From NCBI GenBank assembly GCA_050250935.1, contig JBFWNS010000001.1, forward strand, positions 130,102-194,101: 64,000 bases of DNA. Direction: 5' to 3'. A program made the translations under genes and the position numbers. Below, in pieces: positions 29,428-41,091 of the stretch (the first letter of the stretch is position 1; the number at the start of each line of letters is the position of its first letter). This stretch comes from Candidatus Margulisiibacteriota bacterium. GTDB taxonomy: Bacteria > Margulisbacteria > Marinamargulisbacteria > JBFWNS01. The notes under the pieces are model-generated. The model made no database searches. It had not been told where the DNA came from and worked only from the letters and a program-made list of their open reading frames with translations.

Positions 29428-31299
29428 ATGCGCGTAGACGTTGTGTTTAAGCAAGTCTTGCTTGCTGTTGTGTGTATGTGTTGGTCGGGGCTAGTGATGG
29501 CCCAAACCGAGCCCAGTATAGCGCTTCCCGAAACTGTGGTCAGTGCAACCAAGTTTCCAAGACTCAGTTCGCAAGTCGCCGAAGATGTGTTTGTGATCAC
29601 CTCGAAAAATATGGAAGCAGCCGGGGTTAAAAACATCAAACAAGCCTTGATGTTGGTTCCTGGCTTAACCGTTTCGGATACGGGCGGGGCAACGCCAACA
29701 ACCCTTTTCTTACATGGGTTTCAATCTTACCAAATTTTGGTCCTCAAAGACGGCATGCCCATCAACGACACCATTTCTCCGCAGCCCATTGCCTATTTGG
29801 ATTCGCTTTCCATCGATGATATTGATCGGGTCGAGGTGATGTTCAATTCCAAAAGTGTGCTCTATGGTAGCCAAGCCATGGCTGGCGTTATTCAAATTTT
29901 TTCGAATACCGACGCCAATCAGGTTCATTATGTTCAGGGCTGGGACCACGGCAAAACCTCGGCTCAACTTAGCCGGCAATTTGGCAGTGCCAAAGTCTCG
30001 TTTTCGGGCAGTTACGAAAACGATTGGCGGCAGTCTTCTTACATCAATACCAGCGAACGCGATCGCAAAGAGAGGTCTACTTTTTCGGCTTATGTTGAAA
30101 ATGACTTTGGCTTTTTTAAGGGGGCTTTCCGCTACAACAAGAACAAAGCTACTCTGGGCTTAGATCGTGCCGACTATGTCTATGTTGGCCCTGGCTATGC
30201 CGAGGTTCGCATCGACGATACCAACGACAACCTACAAACCGAACAAAATTTAACCTCCTTAAGCTTGGAAACCTCGGTTATCCCCCTCACCACCACGGTG
30301 TTACAAGGGAGCATTTCCAACATCACCCGCTTGGAACTGAACCAAGCCGATGAGGCATTGAACAGTAACGTGGTGTCTCAATTTTGGGGAGTGACCCGGC
30401 GCTTGGAACTGCGTAACGAAACCCTACTGTCTTCGGAATGGGCAGCCACCTATGGGTTTGACCTTCAAATCGAGGAAGGATCTTCGGATTATTGGCATCC
30501 GCTGTATCCCAGCTCTTTTCCAGCCCAATCGCAGGAAAGCCAAGGCTATTTTGGGCAACTGCAATACACCACGCCAGGCTTTGGGGTTTCGGCCGGGCAT
30601 CGGGTTCATATGGATCACACCCAGCACATTTTAAAAGCCTATTCTTTGGGCAGTTACTACCGGGTTGAAGCCTTGGATCTGTTGGTCAAACCCAGCATTG
30701 GCACCAGTTTCCGAGAAGCCGGCTTATTTGAGCGCTTTGATAGCTATACCGGAAACCCCGATTTTCAACCCGAAACCACCCTCTCCAAGGACCTGCTGTT
30801 GGAAAAACCCCTGGGACCCGTTGTCTTAAGCTGGCGTTGGTTTGAAAACCAGACCTCCAACCTGATTACCTATGATGATTTGAATACCTTCAAATACATC
30901 CAAAACACCGGTACCGCTATAGCAACCGGTCAAGACTATGCCCTATCCATTCGAAATCTCGGCCCGCTTCAGTTTTTAAAAGCGTCTTACACCCGTCTTT
31001 CTGCCAAAGACAAAACCATTTTGAAAACCCCAGACTGGCAGGCCAACTTAAATGGGGGATTCGTTTTCGATGCCTGGCGTTACGGTTTCGACGCTGCTTG
31101 GGTAGGCTCGCGCTTGGATTCGGCCAGCAAACCGTTGGACGCCTATTTTCAGCTTAATTTGCGCGGGGCTTATCAATGGGGCCCTCAAACGCAATTGGAA
31201 GTCATTTTGTTTAATGCCTTGAATTCCCATCACCAAGAGGTGTACGGATTTAACTCCCACGAACGCAATGTCTACTTTGGCATCAAGCAACAGTTTTAA
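29428..31299 (+). CDS. btuB: TonB-dependent outer-membrane receptor, BtuB-like (putative cobalamin transporter)
   Basis: Signal peptide, TonB-box-like ETVVSAT, plug-domain motifs, C-terminal ...GIKQQF; size (623 aa) and upstream B12 riboswitch support a BtuB-type role. Confidence 0.8.
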   Translation: MRVDVVFKQVLLAVVCMCWSGLVMAQTEPSIALPETVVSATKFPRLSSQVAEDVFVITSKNMEAAGVKNIKQALMLVPGLTVSDTGGATPTTLFLHGFQSYQILVLKDGMPINDTISPQPIAYLDSLSIDDIDRVEVMFNSKSVLYGSQAMAGVIQIFSNTDANQVHYVQGWDHGKTSAQLSRQFGSAKVSFSGSYENDWRQSSYINTSERDRKERSTFSAYVENDFGFFKGAFRYNKNKATLGLDRADYVYVGPGYAEVRIDDTNDNLQTEQNLTSLSLETSVIPLTTTVLQGSISNITRLELNQADEALNSNVVSQFWGVTRRLELRNETLLSSEWAATYGFDLQIEEGSSDYWHPLYPSSFPAQSQESQGYFGQLQYTTPGFGVSAGHRVHMDHTQHILKAYSLGSYYRVEALDLLVKPSIGTSFREAGLFERFDSYTGNPDFQPETTLSKDLLLEKPLGPVVLSWRWFENQTSNLITYDDLNTFKYIQNTGTAIATGQDYALSIRNLGPLQFLKASYTRLSAKDKTILKTPDWQANLNGGFVFDAWRYGFDAAWVGSRLDSASKPLDAYFQLNLRGAYQWGPQTQLEVILFNALNSHHQEVYGFNSHERNVYFGIKQQF

Positions 31300-32587
31300 C
31301 ACAACGCTTGCTGAAGCGCTGAACAAAAAAATTGGCCTCTACGAACTGTTTCAAATCGTCGAGGCCCTACCCGCCTTACCGGCCAGATCCGAACACATCC
31401 TCTTGGCCACCTTGCCTGGGGATGTGCACCGGCTGGGCACCCGCATTACCCAAGCTTTGCTTGAAAAGGCAGGGTGTCGGGTAGACGTGCACTGGGAAAT
31501 GACGCCCCAGGCCTTGACCCTCTATTTGGCAAACAACAACCCCACCCATATTGTGATGACCTGTTTTTTAACCGCCCAACTGGATTTTTTCGGGGCCTTG
31601 GTCCCCCAGTTGGTCCAAACACAGACTTGTTTGGTTTTGGGTGGATTTGCGTTTTCTCCCCGGACCTTGTCGACGCGATTTAGCACCTTGGCCCCTAAAA
31701 CCGTGCATCCCAAAAACGGCGTCGAAGCTGCGGGGTTTATTTTACAAGCCTGGCCCTTGCCTTGGGTTTCCAGCCTGACGTTTTCGCCAGATCTCGACAC
31801 TGATCGAAGCAAAAAATGCGCCCCGGTCGCGGTTCAAACCCCTTGCCTGCCCCATTCTTTTTCGCCCATCACCCAAACCGATTTTAACCTGGAAACCCTG
31901 TGGGATGCCATTAATCCACGAACCCTCTACAATTTGCATTTGGGCTTCAAGGGCAACCCGCATCAAGCCCAGGGGAATCCCCTGTTTACCGCAATAACAG
32001 AGCGGTTTAATCGCCTAAAACCCCTGGCACATCGGCTCTTTGAACCCCAGGCATTGTGGCAACATTTTAAAGCCAAAAGCAACCACGATCAGATTTGGGT
32101 GTATCCCGAAGCTTCGGCCCCAGTAAGCTGGGATTTCCCCCGAAAAAATGGGATTTGCCTTGCCGATTATCTGCGTCACGACACCGACGATTTTATCACC
32201 CTCATGGCTGTGACCATTGGAAAAGTCGCGGGAGACCACACCGAAACCCTGTTTCAGCAAGGCCGCTTTACCGACATGCTGTGCTGGCATGCCCTGACCG
32301 TTCAAAGTGCCGAAGCTTTGGCCGAAACCGTTCATGCCCAGTTGCGGCGTATGCACGGTGACGAAGACAGCCCCCCCGATGCCCAATCCCTGTGGGATGC
32401 CCGCTACACCGGCAAACGCTACAGCTTTGGCTACGCGGCTTGCCCCGATTTACGAGGACAGGCCCTATTTTTTAAGTTGCTAAAACCCGAAACCATCGGG
32501 ATTCATCTTTCCGAATCGATGATGATGAACCCCGAAGCTTCGGTGAATGCTCTGGTGTTTTACCACCCCGCTGCTGCCTATTTTTGA
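31268..32587 (+). CDS. Stand-alone cobalamin-binding protein resembling the B12-binding and AdoMet reactivation domains of methionine synthase (no catalytic barrels)
   Basis: N-terminal half has the B12-binding DxHxxG motif (LPGDVHRLG); C-terminal half ends ...RYSFGYAACPDL...IGIHLSESMMMNPEASVNALVFYHPAAAYF, the hallmark of the MetH activation domain. Start overlaps the receptor gene by 32 nt; no signal peptide. Confidence 0.7.
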   Translation: MSTLASSNSFNTTLAEALNKKIGLYELFQIVEALPALPARSEHILLATLPGDVHRLGTRITQALLEKAGCRVDVHWEMTPQALTLYLANNNPTHIVMTCFLTAQLDFFGALVPQLVQTQTCLVLGGFAFSPRTLSTRFSTLAPKTVHPKNGVEAAGFILQAWPLPWVSSLTFSPDLDTDRSKKCAPVAVQTPCLPHSFSPITQTDFNLETLWDAINPRTLYNLHLGFKGNPHQAQGNPLFTAITERFNRLKPLAHRLFEPQALWQHFKAKSNHDQIWVYPEASAPVSWDFPRKNGICLADYLRHDTDDFITLMAVTIGKVAGDHTETLFQQGRFTDMLCWHALTVQSAEALAETVHAQLRRMHGDEDSPPDAQSLWDARYTGKRYSFGYAACPDLRGQALFFKLLKPETIGIHLSESMMMNPEASVNALVFYHPAAAYF

Positions 32588-32854: not shown

Positions 32855-35716
32855 CTACCGCCAATAGCGCCCTACGGTGATGTTGATTGTCTGATGGTCG
32901 GTGTCGTCGTTGAGCATGTACGAGGCGTTGCTGCCAAAGCTGAAGAGGCGGACGCCCATCATGTCGGCCCAAATATCCCCATCCATGACTTCAAAAAACT
33001 CACCTGTGCCATCGAAGGCCACATCGATTTTGTCCGTTTGACCCGAGCTGACCAAATCGTACCAAACCACCAATCGATAGCTGGAATTCCGGGACAAAAT
33101 GCTGTCGGTTTTGGTAAACGTGGGTAAGGTATAGCTGGATTGACGATTGCCGGCCAATACCGACTCCATAGATCCAAGACTGTACACCATCGACTGACTG
33201 GATGGTCCCGTCACGGGGGTTTTGGCACCGGCAGAGAAGAAATAGTCCGACCAAACACCGGCATCGGATCCACCCATTTTAAACAAGCCCACTTTCCATG
33301 TACCGGTTTGACCTACGCCAACCCGAGAACTTAGCGTCGATGGGAAGGTTACAGTCCCGTTCAACCCAATGCTCCACGGTGTGGCAGCCCCAACTTTAAA
33401 GCTGGTTCGGCTTTCAGCGCCTTGCCAAACCACACGTCCAGACGATTGCTCCACCAAGACGGGCATGATGTTGAGTTCGTAGGTGGTTTCGTAGTTGTTC
33501 CCGATATCGCGAACCGTACGGGCCAACTGCTGTTTCAACTGGAAGGAATTCCCTTGGATAAAGCGATTGTCTTGCCAAGAGCTCCAAATAAATTTCCATT
33601 TGTAGTTATCACCACTGGAATCCCAGCTTCCGGAGGGATTAAAGGTATTGTTGTTCCAATCCACTTTAATGGCCGAGAGCCCCAGGTTGATGGCATAGGC
33701 CAAGAAATAGCCATCGGGTACCGTACCAGTCGGTGTATCCCATTGCAGGTTGGGTTGGGCTTTATCCGTATCAACATCCACATCCATGGTTTGCATTTCA
33801 AACGTGTCGTCCCAGCCTGTGGCTTGTACTCTGGCCATGTCCATGCCCCGTGGGTTCCGCCAATTAATCAGGCCAATGCTGGGTTTCAAAATTCTGACCG
33901 TTGTTGATGTCAACACATTGTTGTCGGCATCCAGCACCTTAATCGTGGCCGTTCCCGAAATGTAATCCGTCACAAAGGTGGGGGTAAAGTCTCCAGAAAA
34001 ACCTGTATTTTGATAAGGCGAGATGATCCAGGTGACATCGAAAGGATTATCCAAGGCCTTTTTGGATTGAGCAGCATTAAATGCCGAAATGGCAACCAGG
34101 GATTGAGACGATCTTAACGCTTGGGGATTCCCAATCGATTGGGGGTTATTGCCAGCAGAAACGCGTTGGTATTCCACCGTTTGCGTTCCGGTCGAGGTGG
34201 GGTATTCCAAAACCACACGGGCAGCCGCTGCAGAAGCGTTTTCTGCATAAAGAACCACGCGAGAATCCAAGGCATCGGTGGGTTGCCAGTTGTTGTCCGA
34301 TACTTGTCTATAGGCCCGAACAGGAACCAAAGAGGTTTCAACAATGTAATAGCGCCCGGTTTGAATGCTTACAAAATTAATGGCCTTAAGCAATACAAAC
34401 GGATCAAAAACGGGGCCATCGTGGGTAAAAAACTCATTTCGAACCATCAGCGGCAAAGAACTTCCATCCAATAATCCTGCTTGAATCATGACGGCAATGG
34501 CCTGAGGAACCGTCATGGTTTGGCTTTCGGTAATGGGCAATGTCCACCGGTTGTTTTTGGGGAAAATAACCCGCATGGCCGGCATCGTCGTGGTATCGGA
34601 CGTCGCGGTGGCATCGTAAAAGGCGTATAACTTTCTAAGTTGTGAATTATCTTGATTCATAACCCCCAACATTTCTGCCTTAACATTAGCAACCGACCAA
34701 TAGTCCGACTTTAACTCCCCTTCTGGCAAACTCTCGTTAAACGCCTGGGCAAACTCGGCAATGGTTACCGTTACACCATTCAAATAGCCCGTTGCAAATT
34801 GCTCAATAAAAAATTCTGGTGGCACGCCAACCGAAGATCCGTCTTTGGATCCGCCACCACTTTTACCCCCAAAAATGGACCGAATAATTTGTTTGGCACG
34901 ATCTAGGGTTAAGGTCGCATTAACCTGAGAATCCAAAGCGGCTTGTTGGGCCAATTTTCGTAAATCATCGTCGTTTTGCAACTGCTCGACGATTAGTTTT
35001 TGGGTATCGTCGGGCGCAGGAAACACGTCTTTATTCACCGTAGCATCGGTGGTTGGCTTGACCGGAGACACCCGCTGAATTTCCCCAGAGCTGAGTTTTG
35101 AATTGATGGTATCGGTGATTTTTTGTGTCAATTCGTCGGACAAATCCCCGCTGAATTTATTCCCGTTTCCTTTGGCTACTTTTTCGACCACATAATCCAC
35201 AATAGCCCGGGTCTTTTCAGAGACGTTGGCCGACACGGCCGTTTCTCCGCTTTTAACGTTCACATAGGTGTCCATGCGCAACACGTTTTGGGCTCCGGAA
35301 GAATCTGTCCCTGTTTTGACAATCCCGACCACATATTTTTTACCGTCTGCTATATTTTTGAATTCGTAAGCGCCATCCACCACATTGGCTGTAATGCCCG
35401 TGGGAATAACAGTGCCATCAGATCCAATTTCATATAAAATGGCTGTCCCATCCGACAAAGTCGAAATGTCCGACAAATGTTTTGTGAAGGCTTGAGACAA
35501 CCTTTTGGACGACGACAAACTGCTAATCGAAGACACCGGATTGGTAATCCCCACCTGGCTTTGATCTTGAGCCGATGCAATGACATAGCCACTTAAGGTG
35601 GTGGCCCCCGCATAACTGGTGGTCGAGGTTGTCGACGTGGTGGATTCCGATGCTTTTCCACAGCCCCCCAAAGCCAAAATGAATATCAGCGGAACCGCTG
35701 CAAACCACGTTTTCAT
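32855..35716 (-). CDS. Large predicted lipoprotein of unknown function
   Basis: Start set at MKTWF (ATG 35716, GGAGGG RBS 7 nt upstream); lipobox LALGGC followed by Ser/Thr-rich linker; ~950 aa with no recognised catalytic motif. Confidence 0.6.
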   Translation of the reverse strand: MKTWFAAVPLIFILALGGCGKASESTTSTTSTTSYAGATTLSGYVIASAQDQSQVGITNPVSSISSLSSSKRLSQAFTKHLSDISTLSDGTAILYEIGSDGTVIPTGITANVVDGAYEFKNIADGKKYVVGIVKTGTDSSGAQNVLRMDTYVNVKSGETAVSANVSEKTRAIVDYVVEKVAKGNGNKFSGDLSDELTQKITDTINSKLSSGEIQRVSPVKPTTDATVNKDVFPAPDDTQKLIVEQLQNDDDLRKLAQQAALDSQVNATLTLDRAKQIIRSIFGGKSGGGSKDGSSVGVPPEFFIEQFATGYLNGVTVTIAEFAQAFNESLPEGELKSDYWSVANVKAEMLGVMNQDNSQLRKLYAFYDATATSDTTTMPAMRVIFPKNNRWTLPITESQTMTVPQAIAVMIQAGLLDGSSLPLMVRNEFFTHDGPVFDPFVLLKAINFVSIQTGRYYIVETSLVPVRAYRQVSDNNWQPTDALDSRVVLYAENASAAAARVVLEYPTSTGTQTVEYQRVSAGNNPQSIGNPQALRSSQSLVAISAFNAAQSKKALDNPFDVTWIISPYQNTGFSGDFTPTFVTDYISGTATIKVLDADNNVLTSTTVRILKPSIGLINWRNPRGMDMARVQATGWDDTFEMQTMDVDVDTDKAQPNLQWDTPTGTVPDGYFLAYAINLGLSAIKVDWNNNTFNPSGSWDSSGDNYKWKFIWSSWQDNRFIQGNSFQLKQQLARTVRDIGNNYETTYELNIMPVLVEQSSGRVVWQGAESRTSFKVGAATPWSIGLNGTVTFPSTLSSRVGVGQTGTWKVGLFKMGGSDAGVWSDYFFSAGAKTPVTGPSSQSMVYSLGSMESVLAGNRQSSYTLPTFTKTDSILSRNSSYRLVVWYDLVSSGQTDKIDVAFDGTGEFFEVMDGDIWADMMGVRLFSFGSNASYMLNDDTDHQTINITVGRYWR

Positions 35717-35876
35717 CTCTGTCCCTCCATTTTTGAAACTGTTTCGTTCATTATACATACTTCTTGCCCCTTTCCCAAAATTTTGAGGTTTTAAACCTGT
35801 TTTTTTAATCGAAAATTAGTTTTCTATTTGTGAAGGGGGATTCAAAAATGGTATTCTGATCCTCACTTTTACCCCT

Positions 35877-37142
35877 ATGAACAAACGGTTTTTAGTGCTT
35901 TTAGAACAAGAAATTTCCCTTTGGGTTAACCGTGGCTTTATTCAAGCTGACCAAGGCGAAACCCTTCGTCAGCACTATGCCACCCAAAGCACACCCAAAC
36001 GGGTTTGGGCCCATCCTGGCACCAGCTTGTGGCTTGCCATTGGTGGCTGTTTGGTGGGATTTGGCCTGTTGCTGCTCTTAACTTACCAATGGTCTTTGTA
36101 TCCCATTTGGGTTAAGACCCTTTTCGCCGCCCTGCTTTTGGTGGCTTCTCAAGGTTGCTTTTGGTGGACGCCAAAACCCGCTTCTTCACCGATTTTAAAA
36201 GACCTTTTTTTACTGATGTTTGGACTGGGAACCGGCCTTTCGTTTTTTCTGCTGAATGCAACCTGGCAGTTTTGGTCATACCATGGTTGGCTGGGTCTTT
36301 GGGTGGGCTTTTTGGCCTTGGGGGCTTGGGTTTCGGGCCGAAATAGCCTGACCTATTTCATGATGATTTTGTGCCAACTCTGGTTTGTTCAACATTTTTC
36401 TTGGGTTGAAGGCGGGTTGTTGTTGGCTCTGGTAGGCTGGCAACTTGTCTCGAACAACTGGTTGTCTGCAACGCCCAAAACAGGTCTTTTGCCCGCCGCT
36501 TGGCTGCTTTTTACGGCGATGGGATTGATGCAGGTCTTTAACGGCGGCCCTTTTTCGCTCTATTTTTTGGGATTGGGGCTGTTTTTTTCCCTATTGATTG
36601 TCCGCCACACCCCCAAACTCCACTGGCCCCCAGATTCGGCCATTGGGGTGAGCTTTTTGGGGTTGATGGCTCTCTGTCTTTTTGGCACTTTTAAACTGCA
36701 GTGGCCCTCTTTAATTCAATCGGTTTTGCCAACAACCGTATACTTAGGTTGGGCCAGCACCGTTTTATTAATGGGGCTTGTGGGCCTCTGGGGACTGGCC
36801 TTGTGGCAAAATAAGGCGCGACGTTCGGCTGGGCTGGGGTTTGGGGCAGGGGTTCCAGGTCTGGTTCTGCTGGCTGGGCTCTGGCGTTTGGCCCCCACCC
36901 CCGTTTGGCCCATTCAAACTGCTTTTTTGGTATTGGGTTTATTTTGGTCTGTGTGGCTGGTTCGGGAAGGCCTTTCCAGGAATCAGCTGGCGTGGATCAA
37001 TGTCGGGGGCATCTATGGGACCTTGTTGGTGGCCACCTTCTTTTTCCACCAAGCCTTCGGGGCTGGCCTCCAAGGCTTAGCGTTGCTGATTTTGGGCTCG
37101 GCTATTATCGGTCTTAATTTATATGCAAGGCGAAAATCGTGA
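35877..37142 (+). CDS. Polytopic membrane protein, DUF2157-like N-terminus fused to a multi-TM body
   Basis: 421 aa; soluble N-terminal ~45 aa then at least 10 hydrophobic helices rich in Trp/Gly/Leu; family assignment tentative. Confidence 0.5.
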   Translation: MNKRFLVLLEQEISLWVNRGFIQADQGETLRQHYATQSTPKRVWAHPGTSLWLAIGGCLVGFGLLLLLTYQWSLYPIWVKTLFAALLLVASQGCFWWTPKPASSPILKDLFLLMFGLGTGLSFFLLNATWQFWSYHGWLGLWVGFLALGAWVSGRNSLTYFMMILCQLWFVQHFSWVEGGLLLALVGWQLVSNNWLSATPKTGLLPAAWLLFTAMGLMQVFNGGPFSLYFLGLGLFFSLLIVRHTPKLHWPPDSAIGVSFLGLMALCLFGTFKLQWPSLIQSVLPTTVYLGWASTVLLMGLVGLWGLALWQNKARRSAGLGFGAGVPGLVLLAGLWRLAPTPVWPIQTAFLVLGLFWSVWLVREGLSRNQLAWINVGGIYGTLLVATFFFHQAFGAGLQGLALLILGSAIIGLNLYARRKS

Positions 37143-37723
37143 AAAAACCCAGCTTTTCAACACCCTTGATCGCCCTTGTTCTGACGCAATGGCTTGTATT
37201 CGGTGGTTTTCTGGCCAACGAAGCTTTGATTCGAGCCTTTGGCACCCATCACCTGTTTCGTTTAGAAGAAAACCCGGTTTCTTTGTATTTGCAACAAACC
37301 CGTGTTCCCCTTCCGTTTAAAGACACCACCATCACCCTCAATGCTGCCCCGTTTAAATTGGGCGATCAGGGCTATGTGTTGCTGACGAAAGACAGCTATG
37401 GCTGCGAGGTTCCCTATAGTTTTAGGCCTTCAAAACCCAAGCAAGGTTTTTGTATTCAAGGCACCATTATCGGGTTAACCCCAACGTCCATTACGGTTCG
37501 CTTGGATTTGCCCTCGTTTTTACCCGAAACCCTTCGTGCCCCTCGAACCTCTTTTTCGTCTGCATCAGCCTGGCAAAAAGAGCCCGGACTGGTTACGGTG
37601 CAAATTTGGGGGTCTCAAAGCCGGATTCGCACCCTGTTCATCCGTCGAATGCCGCTTGAAATCTTTCTTAAAACCCCGGCACCTACCCCACAATTTCAGT
37701 TTTTAAAGGAGAAAAAGTCATGA
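37139..37723 (+). CDS. Hypothetical membrane-anchored protein (possibly GDYXXLXY-like)
   Basis: 194 aa; N-terminal TM helix; GDQGYVLL motif loosely resembling GDYxxLxY; start overlaps upstream gene by 4 nt. Confidence 0.4.
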   Translation: MKKPSFSTPLIALVLTQWLVFGGFLANEALIRAFGTHHLFRLEENPVSLYLQQTRVPLPFKDTTITLNAAPFKLGDQGYVLLTKDSYGCEVPYSFRPSKPKQGFCIQGTIIGLTPTSITVRLDLPSFLPETLRAPRTSFSSASAWQKEPGLVTVQIWGSQSRIRTLFIRRMPLEIFLKTPAPTPQFQFLKEKKS

Positions 37724-39063
37724 GCACACCCACCAACAAATTCTTTGTTTTGGATACCAACGTTTTAATCCACAACCCAGCGGCCTTGTACTCGTTTAGC
37801 GAACACACGGTTGTCTTGCCCATCACGGTGATTGAAGAACTCGACAAATTCAAAACCGCTTCCGATAAAAAAGGCATGCATGCCCGGCAAGTCATGCGCG
37901 AAATTGATGGCCTGGTTCGCAAAGGGGCTTTAAAAGAAGGGGCAAAAATCAAAACGGGTGGGAAATTACGCATTGCCCTATGTCCCGAAAAAAGTGTCCT
38001 TAGTTCTTTGGATCTGTCGGTGAATGACAATAAAATTTTAAACTGTGCCCTCTCGTTTTTGGCCCCAGGCAACACTGTTTTTTTTATCTCCAAAGATTTG
38101 AATTCCAGAATCAAGGCCGAGGCACTGGGCATTGTGGCCATGGACTACGAAAAAGAAAAAGTAGAATACACCTCGTTGTACCAGGGTTGGCGCGAGATAG
38201 CTCTGCCACAGGCCAGCATTGATGCGCTGTATAAAGACCATAAACTAGAGGTTAGCAAAACCAACTATTTGGACAACGAGTATTTTTGCATTAAATCTTT
38301 GGAAAACCCCAATACCTCCTGTCTGGCCAAATTTGATGCCCCTCACAATCAACTGGTGCCCATTCGGTCCCATTTCGAAGCCATGGGCGTTAAACCCGCC
38401 AACCTCGAACAACAATTTGCCTTCGATTTATTGCTCAACGACGCGGTGGTCTTGGTCAGTTTGGTGGGACAAGCAGGCACAGGGAAAACCCTGATTGCCC
38501 TGGCCTGCGGCCTTCAACAGGTGCTGGGCAAATCCCCCAAATACGAAAAATTACTGGTGGCCAGACCCATTATGCCCATGGGCAAAGACATTGGCTATTT
38601 ACCTGGTACCAAAGACCAAAAGCTTAATTATTGGATGCAGCCTATTTTCGACAACCTGAATTTTATTATGCACAAAGACGAAACCCCAGAAGACGAACAG
38701 CCCCGTTATAAAAAGGCCGAAAAGTTCGACAAAATCGACTACCTTCTGGAATCTCAGTTGCTTGAAATCGAAGCCCTCACCTATATTCGGGGTCGCAGTA
38801 TTCCCAACCAATTTATCATTATTGATGAGGCCCAAAATCTGACCCCTCACGAAATCAAAACCATCATTTCCCGAGCCGGCAAAGGCACCAAAATTGTCCT
38901 GACTGGCGATGCCGAACAAATCGACAACCCCTATTTGGATGCCAATTCCAACGGACTCAGCTACACCGCCGAACACCTCAAAGGCCAACACATTACCGGC
39001 CACATGTTTTTGTCCAAAAGCGAGCGCTCGCCTTTGGCAACCTTGGCGGCAGAGATGTTATAG
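37720..39063 (+). CDS. PhoH2-type protein (N-terminal PIN domain fused to PhoH-like ATPase)
   Basis: PIN start FVLDTNVLIH; Walker A GQAGTGKT; Walker B FIIIDEAQN; typical PhoH2/YlaK architecture. Confidence 0.8.
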   Translation: MSTPTNKFFVLDTNVLIHNPAALYSFSEHTVVLPITVIEELDKFKTASDKKGMHARQVMREIDGLVRKGALKEGAKIKTGGKLRIALCPEKSVLSSLDLSVNDNKILNCALSFLAPGNTVFFISKDLNSRIKAEALGIVAMDYEKEKVEYTSLYQGWREIALPQASIDALYKDHKLEVSKTNYLDNEYFCIKSLENPNTSCLAKFDAPHNQLVPIRSHFEAMGVKPANLEQQFAFDLLLNDAVVLVSLVGQAGTGKTLIALACGLQQVLGKSPKYEKLLVARPIMPMGKDIGYLPGTKDQKLNYWMQPIFDNLNFIMHKDETPEDEQPRYKKAEKFDKIDYLLESQLLEIEALTYIRGRSIPNQFIIIDEAQNLTPHEIKTIISRAGKGTKIVLTGDAEQIDNPYLDANSNGLSYTAEHLKGQHITGHMFLSKSERSPLATLAAEML

Positions 39064-41091
39064 GGCGTTAAAACTCTCCATCTTTTTTCGCATTGCGTTA
39101 GTCAGTCGAAATCCTGGCATCTGCAGACCTCGTTTAAGACAATCGGACAATGCCGTTTTGACACTGGGGGGATACTTTGCCAAAGGCGCCATCGCAACCT
39201 CAAAATGCATCAAATGAAATTCCCAATATTTCCCCACAATAGCCTTAATAAAAGGAGGGGCATCGGAGACCATAACCGCATTATAAATCTCTTTTAGATG
39301 ACCTTCCAAGTGGGCTAGATAAGCCTTTTGCTCTGGGGAAAGTTGCGTTGTATTTTTTCCAAACGTGGCTTTTAAATACTCCCCTGCATCAAAGATCAAT
39401 TGATGGACACAAAACAACAGACGATTAAAGAGTTCCTCAAGATACTGATAGGCCGTTTGAATCTGCACCTCTCTATCGGATGTGGGTTGTTCAGCACCCC
39501 ATTGTTTAAACTGATCCGAAACCATTGAAAAAGCCCGCTTTAAAGCAACTTTATAGGCCATCGTAAGATCCGGCACGAGGATTTGTTGGGAACCAACCTT
39601 ATACGAACGGTATTCATAGGCCACATTTTGGGTCCCATAAAGTGCAAAACACAGGGTCTTTAAACTAACGTTTGGGGATTGACTTAACCGATCCAAATAT
39701 CGTTCTGGACAAAAATCTCTGAGGGTTGTTGCCAAAGTTGCAAAAACACCTGCATAGACATACTCAAAACGTTGCCCAATTTCTGGAGGCAAGGAAACCA
39801 GTTCAGGTTCCCTTTGGTAGCAAGCTATAACCCGTACCCATCGACCCTGAGGTGTTTCTTGGACTGCCACAACCGCGCGATTGGTATAATCGCTGATACT
39901 ATTTCCCCGTTGATCGGTTTCTTCCACCCCAAATTTGGTTCGACCTGCAGATTGCATATGGTTTCTGGTAAGCGCAGGATTACGGGGGTGGCTTCGTTCC
40001 ACAAATTTTACATTCGACTGACAACTATCCTGGGGTTTTACCACCACAGTTGGACAGGCAAACTCCTGACCGGGGACCAAAAATTTGGAATCAGGGTTGG
40101 GAAAACCAGGAAAGTATCGTTTCGCTTCTACCCCATTGAAACACTGGGCCAAAACCGGGACATTGGGATACAGCATATGGGCAGGATCAAATTCTACAGG
40201 GTTCACGCCATAACGGGTCTGTGCCAACAGTAACCGTTGCATCCCTTTAGGCCACTGATATCCAAAAACCCGAACATCGCCATCTTCTGTGGCTCTAGGA
40301 GATGCAGTATAAACATACTCGAATCTGGGCGTCGTTGACTTGGGTAGCTGTTGCCGAAAATCAGTCTGGGTTGGGAAAAGGGCCCGAAACGATTCAGAAG
40401 TCGTACGCCTTGGGAGAGGCGCAGAAGTTGTCAGGCGGTGTTGGGGGTCCACCGATGGGGCCAGGCTTGCCAAAATACCCTCGTGGGCTCCAAAACGAAG
40501 TAAAGATTCTCCCAGATCTTGAACTTCACAGATCAATGGCCTTCCAGCTTGATCTTTATAATCAACCACCATCACAACCGTATCCCCAACCTGCCATGGC
40601 ACGGGCACAAAATCGGCATCCACCATGGCTTCTGGCCTTCGAGATCTCTCGATAAACGCCTGCAAAACGCTACTTTTCGCCAGATTGTCCGGATGAATCT
40701 CAAACCGAGATCCATCTCGCAGGGCTTGCAAAGGGTCAGCCCCTGCCCGAAGTAAGGCATCTTCGTAGTTAGAGCCTCGACACCCATACAGCACCTCATG
40801 TAAGGGTGTATGCCCTGCTTGATCTGATTGAAGATGAAACAAGGGCGTTCCATAGTATCGCTTTAACAGCAACACCAATTTCTGAAACCGTTCAGGGGCC
40901 AATCGTTCTCGTATGGCCTGAATCAGTAATAACAGTGGATTTAGTCTGGATTGTAGCGTTCTTAATACGAGATTAAGATCGCGGGGATTTTGGCTGTCTC
41001 GAGTCGCCTGTACCAATGCTAATTGGAATACCGTCAAAGCATCGGGTCCGCCTACTGCAGGTTGAATCGAGACATATTTGTAAACACCCAT
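39058..41091 (-). CDS. Hypothetical 677-aa protein with at least one ankyrin-repeat-like motif
   Basis: AGHTPLHEVLYGCRGSNYEDALLRAGADP matches the ankyrin consensus; no signal peptide; local composition looks more AT-rich than the flanking housekeeping genes; 3' end overlaps PhoH2 by 6 nt in convergent orientation. Confidence 0.5.
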   Translation of the reverse strand: MGVYKYVSIQPAVGGPDALTVFQLALVQATRDSQNPRDLNLVLRTLQSRLNPLLLLIQAIRERLAPERFQKLVLLLKRYYGTPLFHLQSDQAGHTPLHEVLYGCRGSNYEDALLRAGADPLQALRDGSRFEIHPDNLAKSSVLQAFIERSRRPEAMVDADFVPVPWQVGDTVVMVVDYKDQAGRPLICEVQDLGESLLRFGAHEGILASLAPSVDPQHRLTTSAPLPRRTTSESFRALFPTQTDFRQQLPKSTTPRFEYVYTASPRATEDGDVRVFGYQWPKGMQRLLLAQTRYGVNPVEFDPAHMLYPNVPVLAQCFNGVEAKRYFPGFPNPDSKFLVPGQEFACPTVVVKPQDSCQSNVKFVERSHPRNPALTRNHMQSAGRTKFGVEETDQRGNSISDYTNRAVVAVQETPQGRWVRVIACYQREPELVSLPPEIGQRFEYVYAGVFATLATTLRDFCPERYLDRLSQSPNVSLKTLCFALYGTQNVAYEYRSYKVGSQQILVPDLTMAYKVALKRAFSMVSDQFKQWGAEQPTSDREVQIQTAYQYLEELFNRLLFCVHQLIFDAGEYLKATFGKNTTQLSPEQKAYLAHLEGHLKEIYNAVMVSDAPPFIKAIVGKYWEFHLMHFEVAMAPLAKYPPSVKTALSDCLKRGLQMPGFRLTNAMRKKMESFNAL

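Follow-up and report, generated by a model that had tools for sequence, protein, structure and literature searches.

The window analysed here is a 64,000-nt stretch of a Candidatus Margulisiibacteriota metagenome-assembled genome (MAG), and all coordinates given below are window positions unless a locus number precedes them. It carries a cluster of three plus-strand genes at 35877-37142, 37139-37723 and 37720-39063, which encode a DUF2157-family polytopic membrane protein (gene 1), a small membrane-anchored protein that is probably a divergent member of the GDYXXLXY family (gene 2) and a PhoH2 protein (gene 3). An earlier note on this DNA had described these three open reading frames (ORFs) and had taken their 4-nt overlaps as the mark of a coupled unit. 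Our ORF listing gave identical coordinates, and both junctions were verified in the sequence. At the gene 1/gene 2 junction (AAATCGTGAAAA), the GTG start and the TGA stop overlap as GTGA (37139-37142), and at the gene 2/gene 3 junction (AAGTCATGAGC), the ATG start and the TGA stop overlap as ATGA (37720-37723). An AAGGAG ribosome-binding site, read from the sequence at 37706-37711 on the plus strand, lies within the end of gene 2, 8 nt 5' of the PhoH2 ATG. A codon-usage log-likelihood score, for which 21 long window ORFs served as the training set, was above zero in the annotated frame alone (0.11, 0.13 and 0.39 for genes 1, 2 and 3, respectively), with values of -0.22 to -0.46 in the other frames of the three genes. 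The public annotation of the MAG contains an identical gene 2 (194 aa) and a gene 1 that is six codons shorter (415 aa). A scan for promoter- and terminator-like sites inside the cluster returned none beyond shuffled-sequence expectation. Taken together, the overlaps, the ribosome-binding site, the coding frames and the lack of internal promoters or terminators above the shuffled background establish that genes 1-3 are one compact operon. Four-base overlaps of the ATGA/GTGA type are the commonest operon junction; they mark operon membership and are in themselves ordinary.

Gene 1 (p1; 35877-37142, plus strand) encodes a polytopic membrane protein of 421 aa with an ATG start. The earlier note had likened it to a DUF2157/DUF4401 fusion, and profile searches bore out the first half of this proposal and not the second. 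PF09925 (DUF2157) matched with 52.7 bits (cut-off 32.4; E 4.8e-14) over profile positions 2-142 of 146, which places the domain at residues 15-156 (35919-36344, plus strand), covering the N-terminal helices and the first four membrane helices. Scores of 40-73 bits were obtained for syntenic relatives with the same profile. PF14351 (DUF4401), in contrast, gave no match in gene 1 at E<=1 and none at E<=10 in the homologues from loci L003, L161, L163 and L166 (the last a partial sequence). The DUF2157 partner in a canonical two-gene pair (L167; 439 aa) likewise has a DUF2157 match only. With no DUF4401 signal in five proteins, we reject the fusion, and gene 1 is an ordinary long DUF2157 build (about 420-440 aa). 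An AlphaFold2 model made from the single sequence has 14 long helices, preceded by two short ones at the N-terminus; this is a low-confidence model (pLDDT 52.7), used for the helix count alone rather than for a fold search. Hydropathy averaged over five homologues gave ~14 blocks, with both termini rich in Lys/Arg. Both approaches thus yield the soluble N-terminal helical segment followed by membrane helices that is characteristic of DUF2157 proteins. The protein is predicted to have a cytoplasmic N-terminal helical domain (~residues 1-45) and then ~14 membrane helices, with both ends inside, and an inside C-terminus is the topology required by a natural fusion in L003, described below.

Gene 2 (p2; 37139-37723, plus strand; 194 aa, GTG start) encodes a single-pass, membrane-anchored, beta-rich protein. 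Its predicted membrane anchor helix, residues 8-34 (37160-37240, plus strand), follows a positively charged MKK in the hydropathy profile and in an AlphaFold2 model based on a 5-sequence alignment (pLDDT 72), where beta strands come after it. Topology prediction, suggested earlier as a check, gave ~14 membrane helices for gene 1 and a single anchor with a beta body for gene 2. Both lpxB and TonB-dependent receptors are present and point to a two-membrane cell, so that "outside" for the products of genes 1 and 2 would be the periplasm.

A weak resemblance of gene 2 to GDYXXLXY proteins had been noted earlier on account of the string GDQGYVLL. We found that the family is probably right and that the string is not the family signature. 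Searches with gene 2 against Pfam (including PF14345, the GDYXXLXY profile that had been named for such a check, at E<=1), NCBIfam and PADLOC gave no match, and word-index homologue searches with gene 1 or with gene 2 returned the query itself only. An exhaustive phmmer search of gene 2 against 1.84 billion representatives gave one meaningful relative, P0004 (183 aa). Its library-wide E value is 6.4e-4, and the alignment, collinear over 167 residues, spans residues 13-179 with 27% identity. P0004 is a canonical GDYXXLXY protein (PF14345, 97 bits, E 1e-27). An hhalign comparison of gene 2 with a 5-member GDYXXLXY profile was weak (probability 2%, E 0.023). The family signature, G-D-Y-x-x-L-x-Y preceded by DPxD, is missing from gene 2: in our alignments A1 and A2 the signature position reads QTRVPLPF (37295-37318, plus strand), compared with RG[AKNS]Y..[FL].[FY] in relatives, and over the longer aligned region NPVSLY..QTRVPLPF stands against DPxDxFRG[AKNS]Y..[FL].F, so that the preceding DPxDP is lost too. 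These G-x-Y and DPxDP residues are lost in the window copy only. GDQGYVLL itself (37361-37384, plus strand) corresponds to a second conserved "GD" block, in which D76 is invariant in A2. Gene 2 shares the GDYXXLXY build of an N-terminal membrane anchor and a ~150-aa beta domain, it lies directly after and overlaps the DUF2157 gene as members of that family do, and the same slot in L161, L163 and L166 is filled by genes with PF14345 matches. Because of the P0004 match, the shared architecture and the conserved position, we regard gene 2 as probably a highly divergent GDYXXLXY-family member, predicted to face the periplasm. The assignment is tentative from the sequence alone, and it is the genomic position that makes it convincing.

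The lost signature raises the question of whether gene 2 is a decaying or re-purposed remnant, with only gene 1 and PhoH2, or PhoH2 alone, being functional, a reading that can coexist with the others considered below. The loss of the signature G-x-Y and DPxDP in this copy only, the lack of a Pfam match, the hhalign probability of 2% and a codon score of 0.13 against a mean of 0.35 for typical window genes would all fit decay. However, gene 1, which has a clear Pfam match, scores equally low (0.11), and in gene 2 the annotated frame alone has a positive score. The full-length ORF is intact with its charged N-terminus, membrane anchor and beta-rich body, it is collinear with a canonical member over 167 residues, both overlaps are intact, and the PhoH2 ribosome-binding site lies inside it. 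We consider it highly improbable that gene 2 is a mere remnant.

The pairing of DUF2157 and GDYXXLXY genes to which the earlier note had drawn attention is real, and the canonical pair in L167, to which P0004 belongs and which has no PhoH2 close by, has the same 4-nt overlap. The canonical module and the window agree in gene order, in the succession of a protein of ~420-440 aa and a single-pass protein of ~180-195 aa, and in predicted topology and domain sizes. They differ in that window gene 2 has lost the signature and fallen below Pfam detection, and in that its pair, unlike that of L167, is coupled to PhoH2. To our knowledge, DUF2157 and GDYXXLXY are widespread membrane families without a known function. 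The L003 fusion and the canonical two-gene pair argue that the two membrane proteins of the operon assemble into a single complex. We regard genes 1-2 as a diverged copy of the widespread DUF2157 + GDYXXLXY two-gene membrane module, and we hold the identities of the genes in the operon to be very likely right.

Gene 3 (p3; 37720-39063, plus strand; 447 aa, ATG start) had been described as a PIN-PhoH (PhoH2) protein, and this is what Pfam and NCBIfam searches returned: an N-terminal PIN nuclease and a PhoH-type P-loop ATPase/RNA helicase in one polypeptide. The PIN_4 domain covers residues 9-144 (37744-38151, plus strand; Pfam E 7.5e-31) and the PhoH ATPase domain residues 224-434 (38389-39021, plus strand; Pfam E 7.6e-48), and the protein also matches the PhoH domain of PDB 3B85 (E 3e-26). 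The match to the NCBIfam PhoH2 equivalog NF053827 is full-length (residues 7-447), but at 298.8 bits it lies below the cut-off of 680; gene 3 has the PhoH2 architecture and is a distant family member, not the NCBI-defined equivalog. By inspection, the PIN motifs LDTN (D12), EELD (39-42; E40/D42), NDN (102-104; D103) and SKD (124-126; D126) are present, and Walker A (GQAGTGKT, 250-257) and Walker B (IIDEAQN, 367-373) are intact. As judged from these motifs, gene 3 is an intact PIN+PhoH (PhoH2) protein.

PhoH2 is widespread in bacteria and archaea, and its physiological role and trigger are poorly understood (PMC7390352). Its biochemistry is known solely from the mycobacterial proteins, where PhoH2 is an ATP-dependent 5'-3' RNA helicase with sequence-specific RNase activity, is co-transcribed with the small upstream gene phoAT and is bound by PhoAT (PMC7390352). 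The phoAT-phoH2 system (Andrews & Arcus; PMC7390352) resembles the window in that a gene upstream of the one for the PIN+PhoH protein overlaps it and shares its transcript. By this token, the operon could be a toxin-antitoxin-like unit, in which PhoH2 is a PIN toxin and an upstream membrane protein neutralises it in place of a PhoAT/VapB-type antitoxin. The overlapping, co-translated upstream genes mirror the mycobacterial arrangement (PMC7390352), the PIN catalytic acidic residues are intact, and there are weak PADLOC matches to helicase-type defence proteins (Nhi, AbiO). However, those matches are low-scoring and confined to the shared P-loop/helicase motifs. Whereas PhoAT is small, cytosolic and VapB-like, the upstream partners in the window are integral membrane proteins, a predicted 14-helix membrane protein and a periplasm-facing protein, with no small soluble DNA-binding antitoxin among them. 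Furthermore, PhoH2 stands without any upstream partner in L002 and L004, and the locus lies among housekeeping genes (aroB, aroQ, glyA, pheA, serS, ilvD, lpxB). A toxin-antitoxin-like role is therefore very unlikely in our estimation. The neighbours as a whole (ilvD, a TonB-dependent receptor, aroQ, aroB, glyA, pheA, serS, lpxB and an RseP-type protease) are those of the core chromosome, and they rule out a mobile or defence-island context. A known defence system was also rejected, as PADLOC gave only weak P-loop/helicase matches for PhoH2 (Nhi, AbiO, GajB) and none for genes 1-2.

The coupling of a DUF2157/GDYXXLXY pair to PhoH2 had been reported as an unfamiliar arrangement, and we compared it across PhoH2-anchored loci, 80 from species-representative genomes and 80 from metagenomes. 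The best sampled PhoH2 relatives are only 57-67% identical to that of the window. A phmmer search with genes 1 and 2 as queries gave no match among any of the ORFs in the 80 genome-derived loci, because PhoH2 evolves far more slowly than the membrane genes; those of the relatives could be recognised only by reading the ORFs and then by small custom hidden Markov models (HMMs). In this way we found the order DUF2157, GDYXXLXY, PhoH2 again in four or more other diverged lineages, with PhoH2 identities of 62-65%. In L001, PhoH2 is separated from a polytopic membrane gene by a GDYXXLXY gene (P0005; Pfam E 1.4e-8, 35 bits against a cut-off of 27). In L003, one ORF of 615 aa combines an N-terminal DUF2157 domain (E 2.9e-10) with a GDYXXLXY-like C-terminus (E 0.021), and this fusion overlaps the PhoH2 start by 8 nt. 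A profile search with the relatives' membrane sequences led to P0005, P0006 and P0007, all of which were already annotated with PF14345. L161/L162, L163-L165 and L166 have the series DUF2157, GDYXXLXY (166-195 aa), PIN_4+PhoH (446-447 aa) and a GT4-type glycosyltransferase. The DUF2157 gene is 424-435 aa long in L161/L162 and L163-L165, and the L166 contig contains no more of the membrane gene than a C-terminal fragment of 241 aa, which has no DUF2157 match. Junctions within the L161-L166 clusters are overlaps or 11-20-nt gaps, and in L082 the end of a GDYXXLXY gene is visible ahead of PhoH2. The coupling is therefore kept in these relatives, whose PhoH2 genes are preceded by the same membrane genes rather than by unrelated ones. 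In a neighbour-joining tree of PhoH2, the window and all arrangement-bearing loci fall in one clade, which also holds L081, L083, L002 and L004.

A glycosyltransferase of GT4/GT1 type lies directly after PhoH2, often overlapping it, in nearly every clade member (L161:7937-9139, L163:7942-9153, L166:2645-3796, L003:3393-3710 and L081:5318-6574; also in L082, L083 and L002). Within the clade, this pairing with PhoH2 is at least as conserved as the link to the membrane pair. A search of the whole 64-kb window for the clade's glycosyltransferase did not find it.

The sequences of these clusters have drifted far apart. BLASTP aligned window gene 1 with its relatives at <=30% identity over partial stretches and did not detect the relatives of gene 2, whereas the PhoH2 proteins are 62-67% identical, and synonymous sites between members are saturated (dS >1 to undefined). 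Between L163 and L166, dN/dS was about 0.05 for the GDYXXLXY gene and about 0.03 for the membrane gene; the relatives' membrane genes are under strong purifying selection. The membrane genes are thus far more diverged than PhoH2, almost beyond recognition, and the order of the cluster has nevertheless been kept. The flanks differ as well: of ten neighbours of the L163 cluster, only YajQ occurs in the window, ~17 kb off. These data bear on another account of the arrangement, namely that the genes have been neighbours since the clade ancestor and were kept together by inertia, with no functional meaning. Its restriction to a single PhoH2 clade, its absence from about 150 other PhoH2 loci and its loss in L002 and L004 would be expected from such inherited synteny. 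Neutral gene order usually decays, however, at the depth indicated by saturated synonymous sites and a PhoH2 identity of only 62-67%. The surrounding genes have indeed changed, and the L003 fusion and junctions of 4-16 nt indicate selection for co-expression. Inertia alone is, in our view, quite improbable.

A reduced form of the arrangement was found in the locus whose PhoH2 is closest to that of the window (L081, 67%). Starting right after phoU and directly before PhoH2, a 66-aa ORF (L081:3784-3984) consists of the DUF2157 N-terminal helical segment and one membrane helix, with a subthreshold Pfam match (E 8.2e-6). In L083, the first 126 nt (L083:1-126) contain the last part of a similar ORF, immediately ahead of PhoH2. 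Both mini ORFs align with the gene 1 N-terminus, in a block that other relatives share. This suggests that the DUF2157 N-terminal domain and first helix are the part tied to PhoH2, and the mini ORFs may be either deletion remnants or a minimal PhoH2-associated membrane tether. The L081 cluster (L081:66-5317) reads pstS-pstC-pstA-pstB-phoU-mini-PhoH2 and is followed by the glycosyltransferase, all genes being co-directional and tightly packed, which suggests that PhoH2 is under phosphate-regulon control in that genome. A search of the window for pst and phoU genes found none; its sole match, to pstB at ~34% identity, was taken as a generic ABC ATPase.

Another reading is that the membrane pair and PhoH2 share only their regulation, being co-transcribed within the same stress or nutrient regulon, for example that of phosphate limitation or envelope stress, and act independently without any contact. 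PhoH is classically linked to phosphate starvation (PMC7390352), which fits the position of the L081 PhoH2 directly after pstS-pstC-pstA-pstB-phoU. The presence of a glycosyltransferase in the same cluster in most relatives, as in a mixed "envelope/stress" operon, and the existence of canonical DUF2157 + GDYXXLXY pairs without PhoH2 would also be in line with shared regulation. On the other hand, the window has no pst genes, gene order and tight junctions have outlasted both the deep divergence of the membrane genes and the change of flanks, and after the loss of the rest of the pair L081 has kept a mini DUF2157 directly ahead of PhoH2, with the end of a comparable ORF visible in L083. Shared regulation as the whole explanation is possible, if on the unlikely side.

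Adjacency has survived synonymous saturation and the turnover of flanking genes, and a minimal DUF2157 was kept beside PhoH2; for these reasons we lean slightly towards a real functional link between the membrane pair and PhoH2. As the overall best explanation, we propose an operon whose membrane module works with PhoH2, and we give this a rough probability of 0.4. In the mechanism that we favour, PhoH2 would be tethered or gated at the inner membrane by the cytoplasmic N-terminal domain and first membrane helix of the DUF2157 protein. The input would come from the periplasmic GDYXXLXY domain, which would report the envelope or nutrient state, and a signal arising beyond the cytoplasm would in this way switch the RNA-unwinding and RNA-cleaving activities of PhoH2. 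LiaI recruiting LiaH and PhoAT restraining mycobacterial PhoH2 would be the analogies. This tethering or gating mechanism in particular is tentative and rather unlikely to be right in its details. One may go further and imagine the pair as a transmembrane signalling device that controls an RNA helicase-nuclease without a transcription factor, in a direct form of envelope-to-RNA-decay signalling. A periplasmic cue would then act on the GDYXXLXY domain and through it on the DUF2157 protein, whose N-terminal domain would bind and gate PhoH2, and the 66-aa mini DUF2157 proteins would represent the smallest membrane tether able to bind PhoH2. If true, this would provide three widespread families with a first function and PhoH2 with a physiological trigger. 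It is speculative, and we think it distinctly unlikely.

Several observations weigh against the proposal that the membrane module works with PhoH2. The link between the membrane pair and PhoH2 is clade-specific: the small membrane-protein HMMs gave no match in about 150 other PhoH2 loci (49-62% identity), and even within the clade L002 and L004 have no upstream partner. Since canonical DUF2157 + GDYXXLXY pairs occur without PhoH2, as in L167, the pair must have a function of its own. Gene 2 may act differently from its family or be decaying, given its lost signature, the lack of a Pfam match and the 2% hhalign probability, and as the bulk of it is predicted to be periplasmic, it would be unable to contact PhoH2 directly. 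The mini ORFs of L081 and L083 could be deletion remnants. Finally, the "sensor" label that DUF2157 carries through LiaI-LiaF-TM has itself been predicted computationally.

LiaI of B. subtilis tethers LiaH to the membrane. A published analysis unifies DUF2157 with the LiaI-LiaF-TM domain, a proposed membrane-stress sensor of envelope-stress systems (PMC11237479). The Lia/PSP systems resemble the window in that a DUF2157-type four-helix membrane domain is encoded beside a cytoplasmic effector. They differ in that the effector in the window is an RNA helicase/nuclease, and in that the window protein has ~10 extra membrane helices and a periplasmic partner. Neither the flanking genes nor the relatives' clusters include PspA/LiaH, Toastrack, PspC or LiaRS/two-component genes. 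Another comparison is the E. coli ybeZ-ybeY-ybeX-lnt operon, in which the PhoH-like ATPase YbeZ acts together with the RNase YbeY and is co-transcribed with CorC/YbeX and Lnt. There, as in the window, a PhoH-family ATPase and an RNase are combined with membrane or envelope genes, to which the glycosyltransferase of the relatives may be compared. In contrast to the window, the RNase YbeY is a separate metalloprotein instead of a fused PIN domain, and the membrane partners belong to unrelated families. Among the matches listed in the full-text literature searched, DUF2157, DUF4401 or GDYXXLXY occur in three papers, in passing only and never together with PhoH, and among the matches listed for PhoH2, no title or abstract is about a membrane partner. 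Each of the component families is known; their combination is not described in the literature searched.

With regard to the surroundings of the operon, a divergent intergenic region of 118 nt (35759-35876) separates gene 1 from a 967-aa minus-strand gene and is the presumed site of the promoter. Its matches to promoter consensus are weak and no more frequent than in shuffled sequence, and the promoter is placed there by inference. The 967-aa protein (32855-35758, minus strand) has a lipoprotein-type signal (…LALGGCGK) and no Pfam or NCBIfam match at E<=1. At the other end, a gene for a 677-aa protein without a family match (39058-41091, minus strand) is convergent with the PhoH2 gene; a 6-nt overlap of their stop codons (TTATAG) leaves no space for a terminator between them. 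Rfam and tRNA scans gave no match in or near the cluster. Over 36001-38000, which covers genes 1-2, the AT skew is strongly negative (-0.23) at a normal GC content of 0.50; this fits the T-rich hydrophobic codons of membrane proteins and suggests no hint of foreign origin. Further upstream (29428-32587, plus strand), a TonB-dependent receptor gene (Plug domain) overlaps the gene of a 439-aa protein with B12-binding and methionine-synthase activation domains, and no cobalamin riboswitch was found at the Rfam gathering threshold.

Taken together, the coupled operon, the L003 fusion and the 66-aa variant provide a guilt-by-association lead, which points to the proteins to be considered together and to the 60-residue segment of first interest. 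It is not uncommon for RNA-processing and envelope genes to share an operon, which limits the value of the lead, and the link is confined to one uncultured lineage and rests on wholly computational evidence.

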